Shown: positions 3,937 through 48,110 of the stretch, in pieces
Numbering within the stretch: the first letter of the stretch is position 1
Layout of the letters: the number at the start of each line of letters is the position of its first letter
Assembly: GCA_016794035.1 (NCBI GenBank)
Contig: JAEUHS010000055.1
Coordinates: 11,351-75,350 of the forward strand
Direction: 5' to 3'
Origin: Planctomycetota bacterium
Lineage (GTDB): Bacteria > Planctomycetota > UBA1135 > UBA2386
DNA length: 64,000 bases
The notes under the pieces: generated by a model
The model's input: the letters and a program-made list of their open reading frames with translations, nothing else
Database searches by the model: none
What the model was told of the DNA's origin: nothing
Position numbers and translations under genes: made by a program

Positions 3937-4595
3937 TGCATCAGCTTCAGCAACTCCTTGTAGACGACATCGGGAGACCGATTCGCATCGATCTCCCGCA
4001 GGATCCGGCGGTCGCGGTAGTACGCCAGCAGGGGCGACGTCTGCGACCGATAGACTTCGAGACGCTTGCCGATCGCCTCGGGGCGATCGTCGGAGCGCTG
4101 CACCAGTGCGCCACCACACTGATCGCAGATGCCGGGGGTCTTCGTCGGCTGGTGTTCGACGTGCCAGATGGCACCACACTTCGAACAGGTCCGGCGGCCC
4201 GAGAGACGTCCGATCAGGACGGACTCCGGGACGGCAAAGTAGATCACGTGCGACAGCGCGGCCGAACCCGACAGGTTCCTGTCGAGCGCTTCGGCCTGCG
4301 GCAGTGTACGGGGGAAGCCATCGAGGATCCAGGCAGACCTCGCGTCGGGCTGCTGGATGCGGGCGCGGACCATGCCGATGATCACCTCGTCGGGGACCAG
4401 CTTGCCGGCATCCATGAAGGTCTTGGCCTCCAGGCCCAGCGGCGTGCCGGCAGAGACCTCCTGCCGCAGCATGTCGCCGGTGGAGATGTGGGCGACCGAG
4501 GCGGCTTCGGCGACCCGCTTGGCCTGCGTGCCCTTGCCGGCGCCTGGCGCCCCCAGGAACACGCAGCGTGCCTGCAATGAAACCGCCGTGGCCAT
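3933..4595 (-). CDS. adk: Adenylate kinase (Zn-lid type)
   Basis: P-loop FLGAPGAGKGTQA and a lid with CSKCG...CDQCGG. ATG at 4595 overlaps the secY stop by 1 nt. The ORF-track extension to 5336 is antisense/out of frame to secY and is rejected. Confidence 0.93.
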   Translation of the reverse strand: MATAVSLQARCVFLGAPGAGKGTQAKRVAEAASVAHISTGDMLRQEVSAGTPLGLEAKTFMDAGKLVPDEVIIGMVRARIQQPDARSAWILDGFPRTLPQAEALDRNLSGSAALSHVIYFAVPESVLIGRLSGRRTCSKCGAIWHVEHQPTKTPGICDQCGGALVQRSDDRPEAIGKRLEVYRSQTSPLLAYYRDRRILREIDANRSPDVVYKELLKLMQ

Positions 4596-5980
4596 CAGCT
4601 GGATCGGCGGCCCCAACCGCTGCCGGCGGACGCACCTTGTCCGACCCCACGACCCGCGCCGCCGGGGCCCGGATGGCCTTCCTCGAGGAAGCCCTCGTAG
4701 TTGCGCATGACCAGCATCGCGTTGAGCTTCTCGACCATGTCGAGAGCCACGCTCACGACGATGAGGATCGACGTGCCGGACATGAAGTAGATCAGGACCT
4801 GGTCCATGCCGCCGCCCCGGCTGGCGCCGAACAGCGTCGGCAGCACCGCGACGACCGCGAGGAAGGCGGCGCCGGCCAGCGTGATGCGGACCATCGTCTG
4901 CTCGAGGAACTGGGCCGTCGGCTTGCCGGGACGGATGCCCGGGATGAACGAACCGCCTTCCTTGAGGTTGGTGGCGATCTCGTTGGGCTGGAACATCATC
5001 GACGTCCAGAAGAACGAGAAGAAGAAGATCAGCACCGTGTAGCTGAGCACGAACCAGAAGCCGTGCTGGCCGCCGAACGCGGTCTCGAGCCAGGTCAGGC
5101 CGAGCGCCTTGCCCACCATCGCCGGGATCACCAGCAACGCCGAGCCGAAGATGATCGGCATGACGCCCGCCTGGTTGACCTTGAACGGCAGGAAGTGCCG
5201 CTGGCCGCCGTAGACGCGCCGACCGCGCGTGTGCTTCGCCTGCTGGATCGGGATGCGCCGCTGCGCCTTCGTCATGTAGACGACCGCGACGACCGCCACT
5301 CCCCAGGCGCCCAGGAACAGCAGCAGGCTCTGCCACGCGTCCCGGTCCATGCCGTATTGGAAGTAGGTGCCGAGCGACGGGTAGAGGTTCGAGACGATGC
5401 CCGCCATGATGATCAGCGAGATGCCGTTGCCGATCCCGTGCTCGGTGATCTGCTCACCGAGCCACATCACGAACATCGTGCCGGCGGTCAGCGCGACCAT
5501 GACGACGATGCAGTAGAGGCCGAACCACTCGCGCACGCCGGCCTGCAGCAACTTGCTGCCATCGGCGCCCAACGGCCCGAAGATCACGAACCAGGACTGG
5601 ATCAGGCAGATGCCGACCGTCGCCAGACGCGTGTACTGATTGATCTTGCGCTGGCCGCTCGCGCCTTCCTTGGCGATCTTCTCCAGCGCCGGCACCGCCT
5701 TCGTCAGCAGGCTGAAGATGATGCTCGCCGAGATGTACGGCATCACGCCGAGCGAGAACAGCGTCGCGCTGTGCAGCGAGCCGCCGGTCAGCACGTTCAT
5801 CATGCCGAAGATCTGACCGATGCCCCCCAGGTTCTTGGTCTGACGCAGCGCCTCGGCGGTGTTCACGCCCGGCAGCGGGATGAAGAAGCCGATGCGGTAC
5901 ACCAACAGCAGACCCAGCGTGATCAGGATCTTGTTCCTGATCTCGGGGATCTTGAACAGGTTGCCGAAGGACAGGTTCAT
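4595..5980 (-). CDS. secY: Preprotein translocase subunit SecY (Gly-rich C-terminal tail)
   Basis: 461 aa and multi-TM. N-terminus is FKIPEIRNKILITLGLLLVYRIGFFIPLPGV. Canonical rplO-secY-adk order. Confidence 0.96.
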   Translation of the reverse strand: MNLSFGNLFKIPEIRNKILITLGLLLVYRIGFFIPLPGVNTAEALRQTKNLGGIGQIFGMMNVLTGGSLHSATLFSLGVMPYISASIIFSLLTKAVPALEKIAKEGASGQRKINQYTRLATVGICLIQSWFVIFGPLGADGSKLLQAGVREWFGLYCIVVMVALTAGTMFVMWLGEQITEHGIGNGISLIIMAGIVSNLYPSLGTYFQYGMDRDAWQSLLLFLGAWGVAVVAVVYMTKAQRRIPIQQAKHTRGRRVYGGQRHFLPFKVNQAGVMPIIFGSALLVIPAMVGKALGLTWLETAFGGQHGFWFVLSYTVLIFFFSFFWTSMMFQPNEIATNLKEGGSFIPGIRPGKPTAQFLEQTMVRITLAGAAFLAVVAVLPTLFGASRGGGMDQVLIYFMSGTSILIVVSVALDMVEKLNAMLVMRNYEGFLEEGHPGPGGAGRGVGQGASAGSGWGRRSS

Positions 5981-5995
5981 GGGATGGTGCGGCGA

Positions 5996-6520
5996 TCAGC
6001 GGCGGCGGGGCGAGCCAGGCGTACGCTTGGTGCCGTCCTTGGCGACGAACTTCGGCCGCCGCGGCTTCGCCTCGATCACCTGGACCTGGCCGCCCGCCTT
6101 CTCGACCTTGGCGCGGGCCGTGCTCGTGATGGCGTCGACCTTGACCGTCACGGCCTTGGTGAGTTCGCCGTTGCCGAGCAGCTTGAACAGCTCCGAGTGC
6201 TTCTCCTTCGAGGTCAGGCCCCTGGCCAGCACGGCCTGCAGGTCGACGACCGCGCCCGCCTCGAAGGCGTCGAGATCGCTGACGTTGACGATCGTGTAGA
6301 CCTTCTCGAAGTTCTTGTTGTTGAAGCCGCGCTTCGGCAACCGGCGATAGAGCGGCATCTGGCCACCTTCCCAGCCGATGCGGCTCGACCAGCCCGAGCG
6401 CGCCTTCGCACCCTTGTGGCCGCGGCCCGAGGTCTTGCCGAGACCGGAACCGACGCCGCGGCCGACCCGCTTGCGCTCGGGGAACTTGAGGCCGAGGGCC
6501 TTTGCTTCGGCGAGATTCAT
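5996..6520 (-). CDS. rplO: 50S ribosomal protein L15
   Basis: RKRVGRGVGSGLGKTSGRGHKGAKARSG matches L15. Overlaps the rpsE stop by 4 nt. Confidence 0.95.
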   Translation of the reverse strand: MNLAEAKALGLKFPERKRVGRGVGSGLGKTSGRGHKGAKARSGWSSRIGWEGGQMPLYRRLPKRGFNNKNFEKVYTIVNVSDLDAFEAGAVVDLQAVLARGLTSKEKHSELFKLLGNGELTKAVTVKVDAITSTARAKVEKAGGQVQVIEAKPRRPKFVAKDGTKRTPGSPRRR

Positions 6521-39077: not shown

Positions 39078-41120
39078 TCAGCGACCCCAGCCTGAATCAC
39101 CAGGAGAGCCCTGCACCACGCGAACCTGACCGTTCGCGTCGTGCTGCGGTTCCTTGTGCCGCTGCCGCCGTCGCTCCAGGTTCTCACACTGGAGCAGCAG
39201 CCGCACAGCCGGTGGCGCAGCATAGCTGCCGCCGTAGAACCGCGCACTATCGTCCTTTTGCAACACGCACACCGCGAGCCAACGCGGCGCCTCCGCGGGG
39301 AAGACGCCGACGAAGCTCGCGTTGCGCACCTCGACCTTGCCGCGGCCGGGAATCCCGATCCGACTCGCGGCAGTGCCTGTCTTGCCGGCGACGACGCCGT
39401 GCAAGTCGATACCTGTCTCCTTCAGCATGCGGCCGTGCATGTGGAAGCCGGTCGCGTGCGGGTCGGCGCTGACCACGTCGACCATCGCCTCGCGCACCAG
39501 CTCGACCACGTCGGGCCGGAACTTCGGCCCAGGGCCGCCGGCCGGCGGGGCCGCGTGCCATTCGCCGCCGATCTCGAGCCCGCGGCAGACGCGCAGGTCG
39601 GCGCCGGCGCCGCGGAACAGCCGCAGGTAGGCGCGCGCCATCTGCATCGCGGTGACCTGCATCTCGTAGCCGAACGAGAACGAGATCGCGCTGTTGCGCC
39701 GGAACGATCGCAACGGGATCGACGGGTCGAAGGACTGCGCGTTCGGTCCGCCCCGGCTCTCGTTCGGCAGCCGCAGCCCCAGCGGCGCGCCGAAGCCGTA
39801 GAACTGCATGTAGTCGTGCCACTGCTCGCGTTCGAGCTGCAGGCCGACGTAGGACGCGCCGATGTTCGAGCTGTTGACGAGGATCCCGTGCGGCGTCAGC
39901 ACCGAGCAGTGGTGGTCGTCGCGCACGACGCGGCTGCCGAGCGATCCGATGCGTTCGCGGTAGTCGGCGCTGCCCGGCGCGCAGTCGAACTCGTGCGACC
40001 AGTCGAGCCGGCCGGCCTCGAGCGCATAGGCGAACACCAGCGGTTTCACGATCGAGCCGGGCTCGTAGAGGCTCTGGGTCGGCGTGAAGGCGGCGTTCGC
40101 GGGATGACGGGCGTCGCGATGCCACGACGCGGCCGCGAGCAGGTCACCGGTCGCCATCTCGACCAGCACCAACGCCCCCCACTTGGGCACCGTGACGCTG
40201 CCTTCGCGGGCCCCGGCCTCGGCCTGGGTCGTCAGCTGGCGCACCGCCTCGCGCTGCAGCTCGAGGTCGATCGTGCTGTGCAGCACGTTGGCCACCGGCT
40301 GTGCGTGCAACGGACCGACGAAGTACGGCTGGCCGCGGCCGTCCTTGAGGAACGGCCGCGATTCCGGCTCGGCCGGCGCCAGCGCCGCCCAGGTCTCCAG
40401 CCCGCAGACGCCGCGCGTCGCGAGCCGCCGTTCGTTCGTGCCGGGCACGACGGTCCAGTCGGTGGCGACGTGGCCGACCAGGCCGTAGGTCGCATCCCGG
40501 TCCGGATGCACGCGCCGGAAGGTGCGCAGGAAGTGCATGCTGACCGAGCTGCGGCGCGCGCCGATCTCGCGCAGCGCCTCGACGACCGACAGCACGTCGA
40601 TCTCGCCGGCGATGCGCACGTCGGCGACGCGCGGATGACCGTCCGGCACCGGCCCATCGGCCGGCAGGTCGTCGGTGCGGAAGGCGTCGCCGAACAGCCG
40701 GCGGAACGCCTCCCGATGCTGCTGGAACGACTCGGCTCGATCGGCGAGATCCGGGTCGGCGACCATCGCGCGGGCGAAGTCGGTCGCGACGTCGCCGATC
40801 CACGCGCGCATCGACTGCACGCTCCGGCCCTCCCGGGCCGGCACCGCGAGCACCGCGCGCACGTCGTAGGTCTGGCAGTCGACCGCGAGCACGCTGCCGT
40901 TGCGGTCGACGATGGTGCCGCGCGGACACGGCACCGCCTCGGTGCGCCAGGCCTGCTGGTCGGCGGTCTCGGCGACGAGCCGCAGCGGCGCGCGGCCTTC
41001 GCGTTCGAGCTGACCGGCCTGCGCGACCTGCAGGTAGCCGAGCCACCCGGCCAGGAACGCGGGCACCGCGCCCAGCAGGCCGAACGCCGCGCGCACCCGG
41101 ATGCGTTCGCCGGCCTTCAT
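39078..41120 (-). CDS. ftsI: Penicillin-binding protein (FtsI/PBP3-like transpeptidase)
   Basis: N-terminal TM helix, PRGTIVDRNGSVLA, candidate SxxK (SIVK), candidate SxN (SSN) and KTGT. ATG at 41120 overlaps the upstream stop (ATGA). Confidence 0.88.
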   Translation of the reverse strand: MKAGERIRVRAAFGLLGAVPAFLAGWLGYLQVAQAGQLEREGRAPLRLVAETADQQAWRTEAVPCPRGTIVDRNGSVLAVDCQTYDVRAVLAVPAREGRSVQSMRAWIGDVATDFARAMVADPDLADRAESFQQHREAFRRLFGDAFRTDDLPADGPVPDGHPRVADVRIAGEIDVLSVVEALREIGARRSSVSMHFLRTFRRVHPDRDATYGLVGHVATDWTVVPGTNERRLATRGVCGLETWAALAPAEPESRPFLKDGRGQPYFVGPLHAQPVANVLHSTIDLELQREAVRQLTTQAEAGAREGSVTVPKWGALVLVEMATGDLLAAASWHRDARHPANAAFTPTQSLYEPGSIVKPLVFAYALEAGRLDWSHEFDCAPGSADYRERIGSLGSRVVRDDHHCSVLTPHGILVNSSNIGASYVGLQLEREQWHDYMQFYGFGAPLGLRLPNESRGGPNAQSFDPSIPLRSFRRNSAISFSFGYEMQVTAMQMARAYLRLFRGAGADLRVCRGLEIGGEWHAAPPAGGPGPKFRPDVVELVREAMVDVVSADPHATGFHMHGRMLKETGIDLHGVVAGKTGTAASRIGIPGRGKVEVRNASFVGVFPAEAPRWLAVCVLQKDDSARFYGGSYAAPPAVRLLLQCENLERRRQRHKEPQHDANGQVRVVQGSPGDSGWGR

Positions 41121-41371
41121 TGCAGGCGCTCCAGGCGGCGCTGCTGCTCGGCCCGCAGCTGCGCCCACATGGCAGCGGCCAGGTATTCCGGCGTCGCCGT
41201 CTCGGCGCGCTCGAGCCCCAGCCGCTCCAGTTCGCCCATGCGATCCTGGATGTCGCGGTAGGTGCGTTCGACGTCGTGGCGCAGCGCGGCGTTGCCGGCG
41301 CGGATCGCGACGGTGCCGATCGCCAGCGCCACCGCGAGCGCGAACAACAGCCCGGCGAGCATCCACCTCAT
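41117..41371 (-). CDS. ftsL: Small bitopic coiled-coil protein in the ftsL position
   Basis: 84 aa: MRWMLAGLLFALAVALAIGTVAI followed by a helical region. It lies between rsmH and ftsI with ATGA overlaps on both sides. Assignment is positional only. Confidence 0.6.
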   Translation of the reverse strand: MRWMLAGLLFALAVALAIGTVAIRAGNAALRHDVERTYRDIQDRMGELERLGLERAETATPEYLAAAMWAQLRAEQQRRLERLQ

Positions 41372-42318
41372 GCGGCCTCCTCGCGGCGGATGCCGCAGCG
41401 CAGCTTGGCGCTGCGCGCGCGCGGGTTGTCGCGCAGTTCGTCGCCCGAGGCCTCGATCGGCTTCTTGGTCACCACGTCGAACCGGGCCCGCAGGAAGTGC
41501 TTGACGATCCGGTCCTCGAGCGAGTGGAACGAGATCACGCACAACCGCCCGCCGGGCCGCAGACAGTCGTGGGCGGCCTGGAGCCCGCGTTCGAGCTCGC
41601 CGAGTTCGTCGTTGAGACGGATGCGGATCGCCTGGAACGTGCGCGTCGCCGGATGGATGCGGCCGTGACGGGCGCCGCCGGGCAGCGCTTCGGTGACCAG
41701 GTCCGCGAGCTGGCGGGTGCGCACGATCGGCGTGCGGCGCCGCACCGCGACCAGGTGGCGGGCGATGCGCCGGCTGTGCCGTTCCTCGCCGAACCGGAAG
41801 ATCGTGTCCGCGAGTTCGGTCTCGCCGACCGTCGCCAGCCAATCGGCGGCCGTCGTCGGTTGCGAGGCGTCCATGCGCATGTCGAGAGGGCCGTCGGCCA
41901 TGAAGGAGAAACCGCGTTCGGGACGATCCAGCTGCAGGGAACTCACGCCGAGATCGAGCAGGACGCGGTCGCAACGGGGCTGACCGGCCGCCGCCAACGC
42001 CTCGCGCATGCTCGAGAAAGGAAGGTGGTGCAGCGAGACCCTGGCCTCTGCGCGGCCGCCGCCGACGTCTGCCAGAAGCAGCGCCCGCGCAGCAGCCAGG
42101 ATCTCGCTGTCCCGGTCGAGCCCGACCAACACGCCGCCGGAGCCGATGGCCTGCACGATTGCCCTCGCGTGTCCACCCGCTCCGACCGTACCATCGACGA
42201 CCACGAGTCCCGGGCTCAGCTGGAGACTCGCCAGCACCTCGCGCAGGAGCACCGGACGATGCACGGGTTGCCTGGACCCGTCACCGCCAGTACCACTGCC
42301 CGTGCCTTCGTCGTTCAT
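41368..42318 (-). CDS. rsmH: 16S rRNA (cytosine1402-N4)-methyltransferase
   Basis: HRPVLLREVL...VVDGTVGAGGHA...DLGVSSLQLD...SFHSLEDRIVK matches RsmH. Confidence 0.95.
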   Translation of the reverse strand: MNDEGTGSGTGGDGSRQPVHRPVLLREVLASLQLSPGLVVVDGTVGAGGHARAIVQAIGSGGVLVGLDRDSEILAAARALLLADVGGGRAEARVSLHHLPFSSMREALAAAGQPRCDRVLLDLGVSSLQLDRPERGFSFMADGPLDMRMDASQPTTAADWLATVGETELADTIFRFGEERHSRRIARHLVAVRRRTPIVRTRQLADLVTEALPGGARHGRIHPATRTFQAIRIRLNDELGELERGLQAAHDCLRPGGRLCVISFHSLEDRIVKHFLRARFDVVTKKPIEASGDELRDNPRARSAKLRCGIRREEAA

Positions 42319-42402
42319 GCGCTGCTTCCCTTGACCACCCGACAGCAGACGCAGAACTCACACCCTGACCGAGGGTGCGCCGGCACGCCTGACCGGCCGT
42401 GC

Positions 42403-42879
42403 TCAGGACTCGACCGCGGGCATCGATGGTTTGGTGGAACCGACCAAAGTGGCAAAGAGCGTCTCTTCCTCGGGACTCGCCTCGGCCAGCGAGGCGTCCA
42501 GGTGCGCGGCGGACCAGATCTCGACGACCCGACCCGTACCCACCAGGACGACCGGCTGGCTCGCAGCGAGCCCCGCGTACTTGAGCAACGGGTCGGGGAT
42601 GCGGATCCGCCGGTTCCCGTCAGGCACGACCGCCTCCGAGTGGCCGAGAAACCGTCGACACAGAGTGCGGTGGGCGCGGCTGCCAGCTACGGCCCTACCA
42701 ATGCGGTCGACGAGTTCTCGGAACCCTTCGGAGTCGTGCAGGAGCAGGCAGCGGTCCAGCCCGGCGGTCAGGTGGAACTTCCATTGGCTCTTCGGGACCT
42801 CGTCCAGGATGCGACTCGGCAGCACGAGTCTGCCTTTGTCGTCCAGTCCGTGTTCCGAGCTGCCAAAGTAGGTGACCAT
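42403..42879 (-). CDS. mraZ: Transcriptional regulator MraZ
   Basis: LDDKGRLVLPSRI and PDGNRRIRIPDPL are the two SpoVT/AbrB-like DxxxR repeats. It is the first gene of the dcw cluster. Confidence 0.93.
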   Translation of the reverse strand: MVTYFGSSEHGLDDKGRLVLPSRILDEVPKSQWKFHLTAGLDRCLLLHDSEGFRELVDRIGRAVAGSRAHRTLCRRFLGHSEAVVPDGNRRIRIPDPLLKYAGLAASQPVVLVGTGRVVEIWSAAHLDASLAEASPEEETLFATLVGSTKPSMPAVES

Positions 42880-42917
42880 CGCGCCGGGACCGGGGCTGCT
42901 GCCCCATGTCGAGTCGC

Positions 42918-42945
42918 ACCATACCGACGCTCAAACCACTGTCAA
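42918..42945 (-). promoter_or_regulatory. Candidate Pmra sigma70-type promoter
   Basis: The minus strand reads TTGACA (42945-42940), then a 16-nt spacer, then TATGGT (42923-42918). The -10 element lies about 40 nt upstream of the mraZ ATG. Confidence 0.5.
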
Positions 42946-42997
42946 CCCTGCTGAACCACTCTGCACCCCCAATGAACCACCCTCTACCACCGACCAC
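42934..42997 (-). promoter_or_regulatory. Array of about 10-nt-phased GTGGT / GGGTT boxes (MraZ-operator-like)
   Basis: The plus strand has aaccac at 42934, 42954 and 42975, aaccct at 42944, taccac at 42985 and gaccac at 42992. On the mraZ strand these read GTGGT(T). The array overlaps the candidate promoter. Confidence 0.45.
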
Positions 42998-43150
42998 CCC
43001 TTGCTGGTAGATCCCATGGTGCCGGCACGGTGGCCCCTACCCAACTGGCAGGGGTCCGCCAGCCGGCGCGCGCCGAACCTGTCGGCGCGGGATTTTCGCC
43101 GATTCCGTGCTCACCTCACCCCCATCCGCTTCCATCGCGTCCCACCCCCC

Positions 43151-43744
43151 ATGCGCCCCCCCCACCTGATCGCGTCGAGTCTCCTGCTCGCCTGTCTCTG
43201 CAGTTGCTCCGGCGGCGAACTCGTCGGCGTGCACGTGAAGCTGCAGAAGGACGGCACGGGCGTCGTCACCGTGCGCACGCTGATGGAGCCGGCCAGCACC
43301 GGCGCCGCCGAGTCGCGCGCGCAGGGCGTGACCTGGGAGAGCCGCGCCGGACTGGCCAGCGCGCAGGGCCGCTTCGACCAGATCAACGACCTGAAGCTCG
43401 GCAACGGCGGCATCCGCTTCCTCGCCGAACTCGGCGACGACCGCCCGAACCTGCGCGTGTTCCTGCAGCGCGGCCCCGACGCGGAGTGGGTCAAGGCGCT
43501 GGTGCCCGACCAGGCGGCGCGGCAGCAGATGGCGAAGGTCTACGACCCGACCGGCCGCACCCGCGAGATCGGCGACGTGCTGCGCATCGAGGTCAGCGTG
43601 CCCGGCGAGGTGTTCGCATCGGGAGTGCGGCCGAGCGGCCGCGGCGTCGAAGCGGCGCACGAAGGCAAGCGCGCCTATCTGCTGGTGCCGGTGCGCACCG
43701 CGCTCGAGGCCGGCGAAGAGCTGGAGTGGTCGTTCAGCTGGTGA
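43151..43744 (+). CDS. Hypothetical lipoprotein
   Basis: MRPPHLIASSLLLACLCSCSGG has a signal peptide and lipobox. GC3 is high. No family recognised. Confidence 0.7.
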   Translation: MRPPHLIASSLLLACLCSCSGGELVGVHVKLQKDGTGVVTVRTLMEPASTGAAESRAQGVTWESRAGLASAQGRFDQINDLKLGNGGIRFLAELGDDRPNLRVFLQRGPDAEWVKALVPDQAARQQMAKVYDPTGRTREIGDVLRIEVSVPGEVFASGVRPSGRGVEAAHEGKRAYLLVPVRTALEAGEELEWSFSW

Positions 43745-44147
43745 GATGGCAGCGGATCAGGACTGATGGCTTGAGTGTGCATGCGGCGGGCAGGTTGCCC
43801 AGGCGGCTCTGGACTGCACCCGCTGCACCTGGGACCAGCGATCCGCGAGCCCGGTCGGCAGTTCTCAGGGCCGCTCGATCCGCCCCGCCCCCTCACAGCA
43901 CACCGAGCAGCAGGTGGGTGCTCGAAGCGAGCGCCGGCGACGACGCGGGGCCGTATCCACCCGATCCGCTGCACGGCGATGCCACGGTCCCTCGGTGGGA
44001 AATCTGCGAGGAATCTCACCGCTCCGATGCACGTCAGGGCAAGCATCCCGAGCGCGCACACGCAAGACATCAGTTCTGAGGGTGCACCCGCGGTGCGATT
44101 CTCCGGAATGTCCGCCACCGGCGCGGGCTTCCGCCCACTGATGCCGC

Positions 44148-45482
44148 ATGCAGGACGCGCCCCAGCCCCGGCCGAGGCTCCAGTTCCGCGCGGGCCGGAT
44201 CCTCGCCTTCGATTGGCCCGCCGCGGTGCGCCCGCCGCTGGGCATGCAGCCGATCGAAGCTCCGCCCGCTGGCCCCCTGGCCGGGCCCGCGCGGCTGCGC
44301 TGGCGACTTCGTGCCGCCCTGCACGCGGTTGGCATCCCGTATCTCGACACGCTGGGCATCGGCACGATCGGAGCAGCACTCGACGAACGGGCCAAGGCAC
44401 CGAACGCCGACCCGAACTGGTCCGCAACGCTGCTCGCGCTGCGCCAGGCAGGCTACCGCGGCCTGGTGCAGGGTCTCGGTGATGCCGCGCGGCTGGGGCT
44501 GGTAGGAGCCCTCGCCCACGCGCTCCACCAGACCGCGCTCGTCGCCGTCGCCGACTCTGCCGTCGAGTACCGCTGGCAACGGGCGGCTGCAGCCGCCGGC
44601 CTCGCCGACGTCGTCACCCCGGCGCGGATCACCGGGCTTGCGCGCGACATGCACTGGCTCGGCGCGCGCCACGACCTGCTGGTCGTCGACACGCCCGAGG
44701 CGATGCCGCATGGGGCGCTCGCGCAGGCCTGCGACGCCTCGGCGGCGCTGGCCCGCGTCGGTCTGGTCACGCGCATCGACTCCTCCTCGGCGGCCCGCTG
44801 GGCGACCGGCATCGGCCCGCTCGTCACCACCCTCGAACGACGCGCCGGTGCCGACCACGTCGAACTGCGCACGGCGTTGCCCGACGAGGTGCGCGCCGGC
44901 TACGAAGCGGCGTGGCACACGTTCCTGGCCGCCTTCGATCGCTTCGCCGCGGCGCGGCCGAATGCCGGCTTCGGCACGTTCGTGCAGCAGGCGCGCGACG
45001 ACCCGATGCAGCGGCCGGCCCTGCGGGCCTGGCACGAGGCGGTGCGGCTCGCGGCCTGGCACGCGCACAAGGCCGCCATGGTCGCCGAGCTGCTGCAACG
45101 ACACCGCGGCCGACGCACGCTGGTGTTCACGCCCGATCGCCGCGCCGCGTACGAACTCGCCGGCCGGCACCTGATCCCGGCGATCACGGCCGAGATCCCG
45201 CGCGCCGAGCGCCAGGCGATGCTGGACGCGTTCCACCGCGGCTCCCTGCCGGCCCTGGCGGGTCCACGACTGCTCGACCTCGGCATCGCCGAAGGCACCG
45301 CCGACGTCGCGATCCTGGTCGGCGGCGGCTACGGCCGGGATCAACGCGACGCGCGCGTTCGCCGGGTGCGTCGCGATGGGCTGGTCTACGAACTGACGAC
45401 GCTCGACACCGTGGAGGTCTCGCGTGCCCACCGCTGGCGCAGCCGCGATGTCGCCGCAGCGCGTGCCGTACACGATCGCTGA
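44148..45482 (+). CDS. XPB/ERCC3-like superfamily-2 helicase homologue with degenerate ATPase motifs
   Basis: The C-terminal RecA lobe is intact (RTLVFTPDRRAAYELA...LDLGIAEGTADVAILVGGGYGRDQRDARVRRVRR). The N-lobe aligns with the XPB order, but the Walker A position reads GLGDAARLG, DExH reads DTPE, and GLTAT-RED reads GLVTRIDSS. There are only 2 Lys in 444 aa and no GK[ST]. Confidence 0.65.
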   Translation: MQDAPQPRPRLQFRAGRILAFDWPAAVRPPLGMQPIEAPPAGPLAGPARLRWRLRAALHAVGIPYLDTLGIGTIGAALDERAKAPNADPNWSATLLALRQAGYRGLVQGLGDAARLGLVGALAHALHQTALVAVADSAVEYRWQRAAAAAGLADVVTPARITGLARDMHWLGARHDLLVVDTPEAMPHGALAQACDASAALARVGLVTRIDSSSAARWATGIGPLVTTLERRAGADHVELRTALPDEVRAGYEAAWHTFLAAFDRFAAARPNAGFGTFVQQARDDPMQRPALRAWHEAVRLAAWHAHKAAMVAELLQRHRGRRTLVFTPDRRAAYELAGRHLIPAITAEIPRAERQAMLDAFHRGSLPALAGPRLLDLGIAEGTADVAILVGGGYGRDQRDARVRRVRRDGLVYELTTLDTVEVSRAHRWRSRDVAAARAVHDR

Positions 45483-46557
45483 CGGCGAATTCGTACCCGC
45501 CTGGCTCGGCGATCGCGACCGGCCCTGGCTGCGCGATCTGCTGGACGAGTCACGGGCGTACGTGGGCCGGCCGATCGGCGAGCTGCTGTTGCGCTTGCGC
45601 CGCAGCGACGTCGACCCGCGCGCGGGCAGACGCCAGGCACCGGCGGTGCACGCGCTCGTCGCCTGGCTGCGGCGGGCGGCGAACGGCCCCGCGCGATCGA
45701 CCGCGCGCCAGCACCTGTTTCGGCTGTATGCCGCCGGCGTGCCGGGCGCCGAAGCCATGCGACGGATCGCCGCGCAACACGGCCTGTCCCCCGACGTGCT
45801 GGCCGGCAGCCTGTTCGCCGACCTGCCGGACCAGCGACTCGTCCAGTGGCCCGAACCGCCGCCCGATCCGACCCGCCTCGCACTGCAGGCCAACACCAGC
45901 ATGGTGCAGGGTCTGCTGCGGCACGCGCACGTGCTCGAACTCCGGCTGCTGGGCGCCTCGCGCGCACTGCTGCGCACGGCCTGGCTCCATGGCGCAGGCC
46001 TGCAGACCGTCGACCACCGCGACGGCTCCGCCACCGGCCGCTGGCGACGCGGCGCGTCGGCCGGCACCGCACGAACGCTCGCCAGTCTGGTGCCGATGCT
46101 GCCGTGGACCCACCGGTATCGACTGATCGCGCAGTGCCAGGTCGGCATCGATCGCGGTCGCGTCGTGCTCGGCACCGGCGACCCGATCCTGCCGGCGCCC
46201 GAGCCGCGGCAGCACGACAGCCAGCTTGAACGCGCCTTCGCCCGCGACTTCGCTCGCGCGCGGCCGGACTGGCGGCTGCTGCGCGAACCGGCGCCGCTGG
46301 CCACCGCCGACGGCCTCGCCTTCCCCGACTTCGCGCTGACGTCGCCCGACCGGCAGCGCACCTGGCTGTGCGAGATCGCCGGCCTGCGCTCCGCGAGCGC
46401 CCTGCCGGCCAAGCTCGCCCTGCTCCAACATGGGCAGCTGGTGCTGTGTCTGCCCGAACGCGCAACCCCGCTCGAGTACCGGTCCCATCCTCGCGTGGTG
46501 CCGTTCCGCCGGCGCGTGCCGATCGAGCGCGTGCTGGCGATCCTCGAGCGAGGCTGA
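45448..46557 (+). CDS. Bax1 / DUF790-like endonuclease
   Basis: The C-terminal block HDSQLERAFARDF...WRLLREP...FPDFALT...WLCEIAG matches the DUF790 nuclease core (E...PD...E-I-x-G). It overlaps the 3' end of the helicase-like gene. A GTG at 45424 is an alternative start. Confidence 0.65.
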   Translation: MSPQRVPYTIADGEFVPAWLGDRDRPWLRDLLDESRAYVGRPIGELLLRLRRSDVDPRAGRRQAPAVHALVAWLRRAANGPARSTARQHLFRLYAAGVPGAEAMRRIAAQHGLSPDVLAGSLFADLPDQRLVQWPEPPPDPTRLALQANTSMVQGLLRHAHVLELRLLGASRALLRTAWLHGAGLQTVDHRDGSATGRWRRGASAGTARTLASLVPMLPWTHRYRLIAQCQVGIDRGRVVLGTGDPILPAPEPRQHDSQLERAFARDFARARPDWRLLREPAPLATADGLAFPDFALTSPDRQRTWLCEIAGLRSASALPAKLALLQHGQLVLCLPERATPLEYRSHPRVVPFRRRVPIERVLAILERG

Positions 46558-46642
46558 CGCGCGTCCCGCCCCGGTCACGTCGCCGAGGCCGGCTCGACGC
46601 GACCTGCTTCGCCGACCCGTCTGGCGCCGGACGGTCCGAGGC

Positions 46643-47176
46643 CTACCCCGCGTCGGCGTCCTTGCCGGCGTCCTCGCCGATCGCCGCCAGCAGCTCGTCC
46701 TTGATCGCAGAGAGGTCCGAGATGTCGATCGCCGGTGCGAACAGCGCCACCGGCTCCATCTCCTTCAGCTTCGGGTCGACGACCACGAGGTCGGCGCGCT
46801 CCTGCTCCTTGGTGCGCGGCGCGACCATCTTCAGCACGCGCTTGCGCAGCAGCAGCAGGGTGCAGAAGTAGCGCAGCGCGCGGGCCCGGTCGTCGTCGAC
46901 GGTGCCGAGGCGGTCGAACAGCACGCGCAGCGACGCGAGGTCCAGCACCGGCTCCCTGCTGCCGCTCTGCTTGCGCAGGGCGCGCCAGAAGATCGGCGCC
47001 CCGGCGCCCTGACTCTGGCAGCGCCGTTCGTGGTCGACGAAGCACGCCTCGCACATCTCGTGGCGCACGCACGCGGGCCACTCGAGCACCGCCACGTAGG
47101 CGCGGCTTGCCGGCAGCGGACAACCGGGCTTGTCGCAGGCGGTGCGGTCGCGGTGGATCTTCCAGTCGTCAGCCAT
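46643..47176 (-). CDS. Hypothetical Cys-rich protein (possible zinc-binding N-terminus)
   Basis: MADDWKIHRDRTACDKPGCPLP...WPACVRHEMCEACFVDHERRC has 6 Cys in the first 53 aa. GC3 is high. It overlaps the upstream HEAT gene by 8 nt. Confidence 0.6.
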   Translation of the reverse strand: MADDWKIHRDRTACDKPGCPLPASRAYVAVLEWPACVRHEMCEACFVDHERRCQSQGAGAPIFWRALRKQSGSREPVLDLASLRVLFDRLGTVDDDRARALRYFCTLLLLRKRVLKMVAPRTKEQERADLVVVDPKLKEMEPVALFAPAIDISDLSAIKDELLAAIGEDAGKDADAG

Positions 47177-48110
47177 GCGTTCCTTCGAGTTCGGTTCCGC
47201 CGTCGGAGTCGGTCAGGGTGGCGGCGAACGCGCGCCACGCGGCCGGCGTGCGCGGGCCGTGCGTGCCCGCGAACACCTGCAGGCTCGCCTGCGCGGCCTC
47301 TTCGCCGCGGTAGTCGCGCTCGCGTTTGCAGCGTTCGAGATAGTCGATCAGCGCGTTCGCCGCCGCGGCGCCGGGGAAGTGCTGCAGCGACTGCGCGGCC
47401 GTGCGCCGGACGAACGCATCGTCGTCGTGGCCCAGGCGTTCGACCAGCAGGTCGCGCACCGGGGCGCCGCCGTCGTGCAGGTCGCGCAGCGCATCGGCGC
47501 GCACCGCGAAGTCCGCGTCGGCGGCGAGCCGCCGCAGGGTCGGCAGCACGTCGCCCGCGACGCCGATCGCGCCCAGCGTGCGCGCCGCCGCGCGCCGCTG
47601 CCGCGCATCGCTGCTCGTCGCCAGCTGCTGCACGGCCGGCACCGCCGGCGCGCCGACGTGCGCCAGCAGCTCGATACCGAGTTCACGCGGCTGCGGCTGG
47701 CCGTGGCACAACAGGTCGCCGACCAGCGTCGGCACTGCCGCGGCGCCCAGCGCCTCGATCTCGGCGATGGCGCGCGTCTCGACCGGATCGGCGATGCGCG
47801 CCGCCGCGCGCAGCAGCCCCTGGTCCTCGCCGAGCGGCCGCCCCTCGCGCACCGTGAACACGTCGCGGATGAACATGCGGGTCAGCCAGACCGCCGTCGT
47901 CGGGTCGGCGGCGGCGCGCTGCCGCAGCGACTCGTAGTCCGGTGCGCGGCCGCGGTAGGCCTGTTCGGCGGCCCGGCACAGCTCCGCCTGTTCGGCCGAC
48001 AACGCGGCGGGGCGGAACGGCGGCGTCGAGGTGCCGGCGCACGCCGCGAGCAGCACCGCCAGCACGGCGCCGCTCCGGCGACACACGTTCGTGGCGGCTC
48101 GGCATGGCAT
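47169..48110 (-). CDS. HEAT-repeat lipoprotein
   Basis: Lipobox AVLLAACAG. Repeated motifs of the type AAxALGxIGxxAVPxL...DxxVRxxA (PBS-lyase HEAT-like). Confidence 0.7.
   Translation of the reverse strand: MPCRAATNVCRRSGAVLAVLLAACAGTSTPPFRPAALSAEQAELCRAAEQAYRGRAPDYESLRQRAAADPTTAVWLTRMFIRDVFTVREGRPLGEDQGLLRAAARIADPVETRAIAEIEALGAAAVPTLVGDLLCHGQPQPRELGIELLAHVGAPAVPAVQQLATSSDARQRRAAARTLGAIGVAGDVLPTLRRLAADADFAVRADALRDLHDGGAPVRDLLVERLGHDDDAFVRRTAAQSLQHFPGAAAANALIDYLERCKRERDYRGEEAAQASLQVFAGTHGPRTPAAWRAFAATLTDSDGGTELEGTHG

Follow-up and report, generated by a model that had tools for sequence, protein, structure and literature searches.

Two overlapping genes of a Planctomycetota bacterium (contig JAEUHS010000055.1) pair an XPB-like protein that has lost its ATPase motifs with a nuclease of the Bax1/DUF790 family. 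They lie in a stretch of 64,000 nucleotides, hereafter referred to as the window, and are designated open reading frame 1 (ORF1) and open reading frame 2 (ORF2). An initial annotation of the window had described them as two overlapping plus-strand genes, and both ORFs were found where it had placed them. The strings that it had quoted are all present: RLQFRAGRILAF at residue 10 of ORF1, GLGDAARLG at 109, VVDTPE at 179, GLVTRIDSS at 205, RTLVFTP at 323 and QRDARVRRVRR at 399, as well as SQLERAF, FPDF and CEIAG in ORF2. The pair is a genuine variant of the known XPB-Bax1 system, which is conserved and had not been described before.

44148..45482, plus strand: ORF1, XPB-like pseudo-helicase of 444 aa, with a DRD-like N-terminus, a degenerate HD1, a ThM insertion and HD2
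45424..46557, plus strand: ORF2, Bax1/DUF790 nuclease of 377 aa, with an NTD, a Cas2-like CRD and a PD-(D/E)xK-like NUS domain

The GC content is ~71% over the whole window and 74-75% around the gene pair. Because it is so high, all six frames contain long ORFs. One of them, an antisense ORF of 780 aa (window 44070-46412, minus strand), spans both genes; it is unsupported and typical of the artefacts met at 74% GC, so that ORF length alone is uninformative in the window. The reality of the ORF1 and ORF2 frames is instead indicated by their GC content at third codon positions (0.87-0.88, similar to that of the neighboring rsmH), by dozens of homologs and by the ratio of nonsynonymous to synonymous substitution rates (dN/dS). 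Relative to the closest relative locus, L008, which is 83% identical to the window cassette at the nucleotide level, this ratio is 0.34 for ORF1 and 0.37 for ORF2.

An XPB fold without the ATPase motifs

ORF1 is a full-length structural homolog of XPB that comprises the DRD, HD1, HD2 and the ThM insertion. The only Pfam family detected in it is Helicase_C (residues 308-410, 26.8 bits for a cut-off of 23.5), with no match to ResIII, DEAD or ERCC3_RAD25_C. The NCBIfam XPB equivalog NF045503 scored 48.4 bits for a cut-off of 610 and covered residues 294-429 only. When the single sequence was compared with solved structures, archaeal XPB was matched from residue 170 onward (E 2e-20). The profile of the ORF1 family aligned end to end with the XPB of A. 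fulgidus, AfXPB (7-426 against 23-469, E 8.5e-49). The AlphaFold2 (AF2) model of ORF1 (pLDDT 91.6, pTM 0.88) led to the same family: archaeal XPB chains were its best Foldseek matches, over ~450 columns and with a top E-value of 1.5e-26 (5tnu, 6p66 and 2fwr, E 1e-26 to 1e-24), followed by TFIIH XPB/Ssl2. The modest TM-scores of these matches would fit different orientations of the two lobes in the model and in the structures. Profile alignment and fold search thus extend the XPB-like identity that had been proposed for the first gene to its full length.

44883..45062, plus strand: ThM (thumb-like) insertion, residues ~246-305, aligned with the ThM of AfXPB
45063..45437, plus strand: HD2 lobe, residues ~306-430, with motif IV (LVFTP), motif V and a modified motif VI
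45342-45368, plus strand: modified motif VI, Q399-R-D-A-R403-V-R-R406, where QRDARVRR replaces QRxGRxxR

The ThM insertion and HD2 are both highly conserved. The ThM holds an invariant loop, AGFGTF, and F278 is invariant. Motifs IV and V are kept in HD2. Motif VI has the family form QRxARxRR, with an invariant R406 and with Q399 and R403 present in at least 90% of members, and it is followed by a deletion of ~7 residues.

The motifs of HD1 were examined in alignments with canonical bacterial XPBs (P0070-P0072), with 80 representatives of XPBs that keep their ATPase motifs, referred to below as live, and with AfXPB.

44472..44498, plus strand: degenerate motif I (Walker A), G109-L-G-D-A-A-R-L-G117; family form GLxExxR, compared with PTGSGKTR in live XPBs
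44682..44708, plus strand: degenerate motif II, V179-V-D-T-P-E-A-M-P187; family form VDxPExxP, compared with DExHH in live XPBs

At the position of motif I, the Ser or Gly of live XPBs is replaced by an acidic residue in every member of the clade to which ORF1 belongs (the dead clade), and the Lys-Thr is missing from all of them. In motif Ia, PTRxLxxQW is replaced by ADSAVEYRW (family form xDSGAxxxW). In motif II the Asp is kept, the catalytic Glu and His are gone, and a new P-E-x-x-P is conserved. Motif III reads GLVTRI instead of GLTATP. The RED motif is also missing: GLVTRIDSS aligns with GLTATFERED and the archaeal RED tripeptide falls opposite SSS, while an R-x-D (R209 and D211; consensus RxD) found a few residues upstream is not aligned with RED. 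In the alignment of AfXPB with the family profile, GSGKT lies opposite 'laeaer' and DEvHH opposite 'dapel'. The replacements of motifs I, II, III and RED that had been proposed initially were therefore confirmed by the alignments with both live XPBs and AfXPB.

Two findings might have overturned this description, namely an intact P-loop elsewhere in the protein and an assignment of the genes to unrelated families. The scan of the whole ORF1 sequence found no GK[ST], no DExH and no [AG]x4G[KR][ST], and hence no other P-loop, and the profile and fold searches placed both genes in the proposed families. ORF1 has exactly two lysines, K83 and K308, as had been noted. Their scarcity is partly an effect of the high GC content: ORF1 has 55 Arg, and the rsmH product contains only 1.3% Lys.

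Since the Lys and Thr of the P-loop, the Glu of motif II and motif III are gone, ORF1 is most likely unable to bind or hydrolyze ATP in the canonical way and may be described as catalytically dead. It is predicted to have neither DNA-dependent ATPase nor 3'-5' translocase activity. The former ATP site has acquired conserved residues of its own. D136 is invariant in the family (D136-S-G-A), and G109, E184 and P187 are found in at least 90% of members. These residues could be seen as the active site of an unusual but working motor, in which R115 would stand for the P-loop Lys, E184 would act as the base and the arginines of motif VI would complete the site; R115 (in GLxExxR), E184 and R403/R406 are indeed conserved. 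Such a non-canonical NTPase is very improbable. The glycine-rich P-loop has disappeared, and phosphate would be repelled by the acidic residue D/E112. The coupling of hydrolysis to the movement of DNA depends on motifs Ia and III, which are replaced as well, and conservation is relaxed in HD1 relative to HD2, unlike in active XPBs. We know of no active superfamily 2 (SF2) ATPase from which GK[ST] and the motif II D-E are missing together.

The Bax1/DUF790 nuclease

The partner is a distant bacterial member of the Bax1/DUF790 family and not an equivalog of the archaeal protein. Pfam DUF790 covers residues 17-374 of the 377 residues of ORF2 (101 bits for a cut-off of 28.8, E 7.9e-29), and the ORF2 family profile aligned end to end with solved Bax1 chains (8gy8, 6p4w and 6p66; E 3e-36 to 3.5e-29). 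With its AF2 model (pLDDT 92.5), Bax1 chains were the only significant Foldseek matches (E 5e-21 to 2e-18). The NCBIfam Bax1 equivalog NF053695, of the Sulfurisphaera type, scored 42.2 bits for a cut-off of 500. ORF2 ends at the NUS domain, as do the 375-aa Bax1 of P. furiosus (8gy8) and a truncated construct of the S. tokodaii protein, and has no archaeal C-terminal domain.

46216..46374, plus strand: nuclease acidic triad and surrounding motifs, D265-S266-x-x-E269, F300-P301-D302-F303 and E317-I-A-G320
46228-46230, 46327-46329 and 46372-46374, plus strand: codons of the triad residues E269, D302 and E317, respectively (377-aa numbering)

Among 28 DUF790 proteins paired with dead or live XPBs, there is no variation in the motifs DSxxE, FPDF and ExxG, and those of ORF2 align with fDSsvE, PDF and vEIvG of solved Bax1. 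The counterparts of the triad in the Bax1 of A. fulgidus (AfBax1) are E275, D305 and E318 (PMC7293015). The nuclease side had been thought to be intact; the full-length DUF790 domain and the invariant triad agree with this. The nuclease of ORF2 is apparently intact and its activity would be Mg2+-dependent and structure-specific.

In crystal structures, the NTD of Bax1 binds XPB through the ThM and HD2 (PMC7293015). The residues of this interface are partly conserved in ORF2, where F123, D125 and N149 correspond to Y131, D133 and N156 of the A. fulgidus protein, and the XPB-Bax1 interface has probably been retained in the pair. Bacterial DUF790 proteins have a Pro in place of A. fulgidus E135, which in archaea is the second of the acidic residues at the N-terminal site. 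The third nuclease motif is followed by different residues according to the partner: EIAGLRD was found with dead XPBs, compared with EIVGFWT with live XPBs and in archaeal Bax1. The alignments point to a change that is specific to the clade.

Distribution and selection of the motif loss

Relatives of ORF1 were sought in 5.8 billion proteins by protein search and in 1.84 billion representatives (clustered at 50% identity) by profile search. The former returned 69 clusters of homologs at 41-100% identity, for which the precomputed Pfam annotation is Helicase_C alone or nothing, and every named source among them is a metagenome-assembled genome (MAG) of Planctomycetes/Planctomycetota. The next tier below consists of canonical XPBs with DEAD, ResIII, XPB_DRD and ERCC3_RAD25_C. 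The same division was seen in the profile search. All of the full-length representatives scoring at least 335 bits (14/14) lack the ATPase motifs, and nearly all of those scoring 260 bits or less have PTGxGKT, DExHH, GLTAT and QRxGRxLR. Finally, a scan of one genome per GTDB species gave 21 loci, all in Planctomycetota MAGs, and neither GK[ST] nor DExH was found in any of the 19 loci whose motif regions are readable. The motifs have thus been lost in the orthologs as well, which excludes a local decay of the window copy.

The dN/dS values by region of ORF1, relative to L008, are 0.40 for the DRD, 0.29 for HD1, 0.34 for the ThM and 0.17, the lowest, for HD2. Together with the new conserved residues at the old active site, these values indicate that the dead lobe is maintained by selection. 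The motif loss is ancient, maintained and clade-wide, and not the decay of one copy.

The distribution of conservation along the protein has also changed. In live XPBs, the mean pairwise identity is 0.42 for HD1, 0.44 for HD2 and 0.23 for the ThM; in the dead clade it is 0.32, 0.53 and 0.52, respectively. The ThM is therefore the segment with the largest rise in conservation. The fall of HD1 and the level reached by the ThM and HD2 show that selection is now concentrated on the module that binds the partner and wedges DNA. In archaea, the ThM acts as a wedge between the strands at a fork and grips the 3' arm (PMC7672443).

Degenerate XPB-like proteins are not confined to this clade. Several arose independently among live XPBs (P0234, P0317, P0333, P0282 and P0300). 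The DUF790 proteins encoded behind degenerate XPBs have lost the first Glu of the triad in locus L029 and have PSF for PDF in L033; in L032 the motif is PEL for PDF, and a loss of the triad is possible. Two other degenerate XPB-like proteins (L030 and L031) are orphans with no DUF790 neighbor. The degenerate XPBs of L029-L033 look like products of decay or a different end state, unlike the clade of the window. The combination of a dead XPB with a live nuclease was considered as a general phenomenon and rejected, the other degenerate lineages examined having a degenerate or absent DUF790. From this, it is only in this Planctomycetota clade that a dead helicase and an intact nuclease are stably associated.

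These scattered proteins, with their degenerate motifs and their degenerate or missing DUF790, are what could be invoked to regard the window genes as a decaying pseudogene pair without function. This explanation is effectively refuted by the conservation data. At least 69 clusters, the most distant at 41% identity, have uninterrupted reading frames of ~430-445 aa, and all dN/dS values of the ORF1 regions lie between 0.17 and 0.40. Both proteins are modeled with an AF2 confidence above 91, the nuclease triad is invariant, and the promoter-like and Shine-Dalgarno-GTG elements described below are conserved.

Gene starts and expression signals

44116..44141, plus strand: promoter-like two-block element, CACCG (44116-44120), 15 nt, CACTGA (44136-44141), ending 6 nt before the ATG of ORF1
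45413..45426, plus strand: translational-coupling site inside ORF1, GGAGG (45413-45417), 6 nt, GTG (45424-45426)

The element upstream of ORF1 has the family form TG(Y)MACCG, ~15 nt, GCACAKAG, and ends ~6 nt before the start codon. Its strict pattern, [AC]ACCG-N14-16-CAC[ATG]NA, occurs at -26 to -35 from the start of the first gene in 10 of 20 family loci, with near-variants in most of the others. The background is 0.14 of 20 in shuffled upstream sequences and 4 of 1634 in other 125-nt stretches of the same loci. The element may serve as a promoter. A scan for the sigma-70 consensus found no promoter, no intrinsic terminator was found, and Rfam gave no match over 43500-46800 at E-values up to 1. 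A further block, GATTC/GATTT (window 44097-44101), was seen by eye in many family loci, a few to ~20 nt upstream of the ACCG block.

The start of ORF1 at ATG 44148 is supported by this element and by the N-terminus LxFRAGxLxVxxWP, which is conserved in the family. There is no Shine-Dalgarno sequence between the two-block element and the ATG, which suggests a near-leaderless transcript. The NCBI call of the identical protein (P0001, 412 aa) starts 32 codons later at M33 and leaves out 44148-44243; public annotations of ORF1 are 'hypothetical' or 'helicase-related'.

The second gene appears to be translated from within the first. GGAGG-N6-GTG is made from ORF1 codons for a conserved helix, xEV(G/S)RA, and was found in the window and in the six other loci examined for it (L008, L001, L004, L009, L013 and L016). 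Its conservation places the start of ORF2 at GTG 45424. The resulting overlap of ORF1 and ORF2 is 59 nt, and the same overlap is called in L001 and L004. This arrangement implies translational coupling and fits an obligate heterodimer. The alternative start of ORF2 at ATG 45448, used in the JGI call of the identical protein (P0073, 369 aa), leaves out 45424-45447 and is disfavored by the conserved site. Both ORFs thus appear truncated at the 5' end in public annotations.

Linkage, ancestry and genomic context

The XPB-Bax1 pairing had been deduced from the window, where the two genes overlap, and it recurs across the relatives. A DUF790 gene is directly downstream in 20 of the 21 genome loci. 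In the three distant relatives located on long contigs (L001, L003 and L004), it overlaps the end of the XPB-like gene every time, with different flanking genes. The sole non-contiguous locus (L021, on a 1.24-Mb contig of a Planctomycetota MAG) has ~2 kb between the two genes (4344-6429). This insert contains an open frame of 445 aa with no Pfam match, directly upstream of the DUF790 gene and in the same frame. Judging from these loci, the pairing would be obligate. DUF790 proteins ~40% identical to ORF2 lie behind canonical XPBs in the same order, also with an overlap, which designates the cassette as a derivative of the bacterial XPB-DUF790 operon. Its composition matches that of the host. 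Nucleotide homology with L008 covers 44088-46574 only, so the cassette is sharply bounded.

A third conserved gene was searched for and rejected. The genes upstream of the cassette in L001, L003 and L004 (421-472 aa) are unrelated to one another and have no counterpart in the window. This bears on the possibility that the XPB-like protein is an adaptor, which would connect the nuclease to a separate motor or to a stalled polymerase (a UvrD- or Mfd-like helicase, RNA polymerase) with HD1 and the DRD as docking surface. The opening of the DNA would then be the task of that partner. The purifying selection on these two domains and their new conserved motifs, despite lost catalysis, would suit such a role. 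Eukaryotic XPB works inside a multi-subunit machine (PMC13024598), which offers a precedent. With no third gene conserved beside the pair and nothing in the data that indicates a specific partner, this adaptor role is quite improbable.

A mobile element was also considered. The longest inverted repeat of the region (I1; 44150-44180 and 46539-46569) has one arm at the beginning of the ORF1 coding sequence and the other at the end of that of ORF2. It is 31 nt long and 77% complementary (24/31, compared with a maximum of 21 after shuffling). L001, L003 and L004 do not contain it, and neither does L008, despite 83% identity; the repeat is therefore probably due to chance, and the mobile element hypothesis was rejected. 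A phage or defence origin was likewise rejected: PADLOC made no assignment and the scan of viral contigs found no relatives of the pair. In PADLOC, ORF2 had no match and ORF1 had only a marginal match to PbeA over the Helicase_C region (E 0.016).

The genes that flank the pair in the window are of the housekeeping type (mraZ, rsmH, ftsI, a HEAT-repeat protein and a GNAT), and no defence, toxin-antitoxin or mobile genes flank it. The stretch had been called accessory-looking in the initial annotation. This stands as far as the neighborhood is concerned, which is unrelated even in the closest relative. It does not stand for codon composition, which is host-like, nor for the flanking genes, none of which belongs to mobile or defence systems. 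The lower-GC gap of about 400 nt said to precede the pair was found at 43745-44147 (403 nt, 69% GC compared with 74-75% in the genes).

The head of a division/cell-wall (dcw) cluster lies on the minus strand at 39078-42879 and diverges from a lipoprotein-like ORF and the XPB-like cassette. It comprises mraZ (42403-42879, Pfam MraZ), rsmH/mraW (41368-42318, Methyltransf_5, E 1e-97) and a large ORF resembling penicillin-binding proteins/FtsI (39078-41366). The lipoprotein-like ORF (42872-43744, plus strand) has a lipoprotein-type signal, MRPPHLIASSLLLACLCSCSGG, with the lipobox LLAC, and its true start is probably near 43151. It matches no Pfam family, directly precedes the 403-nt gap and is not kept beside the cassette in other loci. 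Directly downstream and converging on the cassette, a minus-strand gene (46643-47176) codes for a Cys-containing protein of 177 aa with no Pfam match. It overlaps by 8 nt the gene of a 313-aa HEAT-repeat protein (47169-48110, minus strand; HEAT_2, E 5e-14). Along the window, the GC content is 64-69% in the first ~14 kb and mostly 70-78% from 15000 to 64000.

These surroundings are relevant to another explanation, in which the pseudo-XPB would be a keeper or inhibitor. It would mask the nuclease in the manner of an antitoxin or a checkpoint and release it upon DNA damage, phage DNA or a ligand of the remodeled cleft, with no targeting to junctions. Binding of archaeal XPB blocks the active site in the N-terminal part of Bax1, and in the archaeal ternary complex the nuclease domain is kept at a distance from the DNA (PMC7293015 and PMC7672443). 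The tight translational coupling and the 1:1 linkage of the genes would suit a toxin-keeper pair, as would cassette neighborhoods that are unrelated even in close relatives, and the new conserved residues line the former ATP site. The PADLOC results, the flanking genes of the window and the absence of members on viral contigs speak against this explanation. The gain of conservation in the ThM concerns a DNA-wedging element and not merely an interface patch. Moreover, the N-terminal site that archaeal XPB blocks is without its second acidic residue in bacterial proteins, where E135 of A. fulgidus is replaced by Pro. A keeper function is unlikely on balance.

A proposed ATP-independent scaffold

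The favored reading, to which we assign a probability of about 0.6, is that ORF1 is an ATP-independent XPB scaffold that binds DNA junctions on behalf of a structure-specific nuclease, ORF2. The pair is conserved across an entire clade of Planctomycetota, which suggests that what remains of the helicase probably serves as a scaffold that grips DNA and no longer as a motor. A bacterial XPB-DUF790 pair would have given rise to a two-gene, translationally coupled operon in which the XPB was converted to a pseudo-helicase. ORF1 and ORF2 would form a 1:1 complex through the ThM and HD2 surfaces of ORF1, as for archaeal XPB. ORF1 would clamp a pre-existing DNA junction (bubble, fork or flap) with the ThM as a wedge. 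The nuclease domain of ORF2 would thereby be positioned, or licensed, to incise a single strand close to the junction, and ORF1 would not use ATP to extend the bubble. The formation of the complex, its binding to DNA junctions and a cellular substrate for the pair are all putative at this stage, being deduced from sequences.

Several properties of the archaeal proteins make a motor-less XPB plausible. The incision assays of AfXPB-Bax1 were carried out in a Tris/NaCl/MgCl2 buffer without ATP (PMC7293015). In these conditions, AfXPB suppressed the N-terminal activity of Bax1, enhanced that of the nuclease domain and led to additional cuts where the 16-nt bubble has its other junction (PMC7293015). 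The ATP-free complex of S. tokodaii XPB (StXPB) and Bax1 encircles a forked DNA, at the junction of which the ThM is inserted (PMC7672443). It is from these two ATP-free observations that an ATP-independent clamping and positioning role is proposed for ORF1. The suggestion that the protein acts as a sensor or regulator rather than as a translocase is in line with them. It would fit both the shift of constraint toward the ThM and HD2 and the effects exerted by XPB without ATP (PMC7293015).

Some observations weigh against the scaffold proposal. HD1 and the DRD are still selected (dN/dS 0.29-0.40), a point at which a pure 'HD2 adaptor' model fails. These domains must act somehow, possibly by DNA contact, as an inter-lobe latch or by docking a ligand or protein. 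R115 adjoins the position of the old Lys and the motif VI arginines are kept, so that ORF1 could possibly bind some nucleotide or another anionic ligand. The other lineages with degenerate XPBs, in which DUF790 is degenerate or missing, illustrate that motif loss can accompany decay. All carriers of the cassette are uncultivated MAGs.

A bolder and tentative extension is that the clade represents a natural separation of function. The core function of XPB-Bax1 would then be the ATP-independent recognition and incision of junctions, and the remodeled HD1 cleft would be a latch that mimics a nucleotide state, or a gate of the nuclease that senses a ligand or protein. If this is true, the motor has been removed catalytically, the nuclease and the ThM/HD2 clamp have not only persisted but become tighter, and the cleft is formed by GLxExxR, DSGA and VDxPExxP facing the retained arginines of motif VI.

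Comparison with known systems

The combination of a dead helicase with an apparently active Bax1-like nuclease was initially thought not to have been described. In agreement with this, neither an ATPase-dead XPB nor a Planctomycetota XPB-Bax1 was found in the searchable literature. According to the paper on M. tuberculosis XPB, bacteria had yielded no XPB-nuclease complex (PMC3353954). A review of 2026 considers XPB-Bax1 solely in its archaeal, ATP-driven form (PMC13024598).

The window pair resembles the archaeal XPB-Bax1 of A. fulgidus and S. tokodaii (6P66, 6P4F, 6P4O and 6P4W) by the full-length homology of both proteins, the adjacency of the genes, the nuclease triad and the retention of the ThM and HD2, which are highly conserved in the window pair. 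It differs by an XPB without Walker A, DExH, motif III and RED and with a deletion of ~7 residues after motif VI, by a Bax1-like protein without the C-terminal domain and with a Pro for A. fulgidus E135, and by its bacterial host. Because these ATPase motifs are missing, ORF1 should not be able to extend a bubble by ATP hydrolysis.

The nearest relatives are the canonical bacterial XPB-DUF790 pairs (L005-L007; P0070-P0072; M. tuberculosis-type XPB), at 32-38% identity for XPB and ~40% for DUF790. Gene order, the existence of an overlap and the nuclease motifs are common to both. Canonical XPBs, unlike ORF1, keep PTGxGKT, DExHH, GLTAT and QRxGRxLR and match Pfam DEAD, ResIII and ERCC3_RAD25_C. 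Their partners have EIVGFWT where the DUF790 proteins of the dead clade have EIAGLRD, and the overlap of their operons is 29 nt, with a different start context, instead of 59 nt.

The interest of the clade concerns the in vivo role of XPB-Bax1 outside eukaryotes. The XPB-DUF790 pair is widespread in bacteria, including with intact XPBs, and one lineage has kept it long after the loss of the ATPase motifs, which points to nuclease targeting and DNA clamping as the selected function. The clade also provides a ready-made ATPase-null version with which the control of Bax1 by XPB could be dissected.

Dead SF2 modules have been recruited elsewhere. Utp25 has similarly kept an SF2 fold, lost its catalytic motifs and taken a structural role (PMC9539457). 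It differs by its context, that of RNA and ribosome assembly, and by the absence of a nuclease partner, and is unrelated beyond the SF2 fold. A closer likeness is found with the helicase-like domain of XPF/ERCC4, as opposed to that of archaeal Hef, where a dead SF2 module is the scaffold of a PD-(D/E)xK-type nuclease. Having lost its ATPase motifs, the helicase-like domain of XPF remains as a scaffold that serves a structure-specific nuclease in DNA binding and regulation. The nuclease of XPF is of the ERCC4 type and not DUF790, its helicase is of the Hef/FANCM type and not of the XPB type, and the two are fused instead of being encoded by two coupled genes. The likeness is thus one of analogy and not of membership: the theme of a dead SF2 protein associated with a nuclease is known, but not for XPB-Bax1, and the Planctomycetota pair would be its counterpart in prokaryotes to what XPF has in its dead helicase-like domain.

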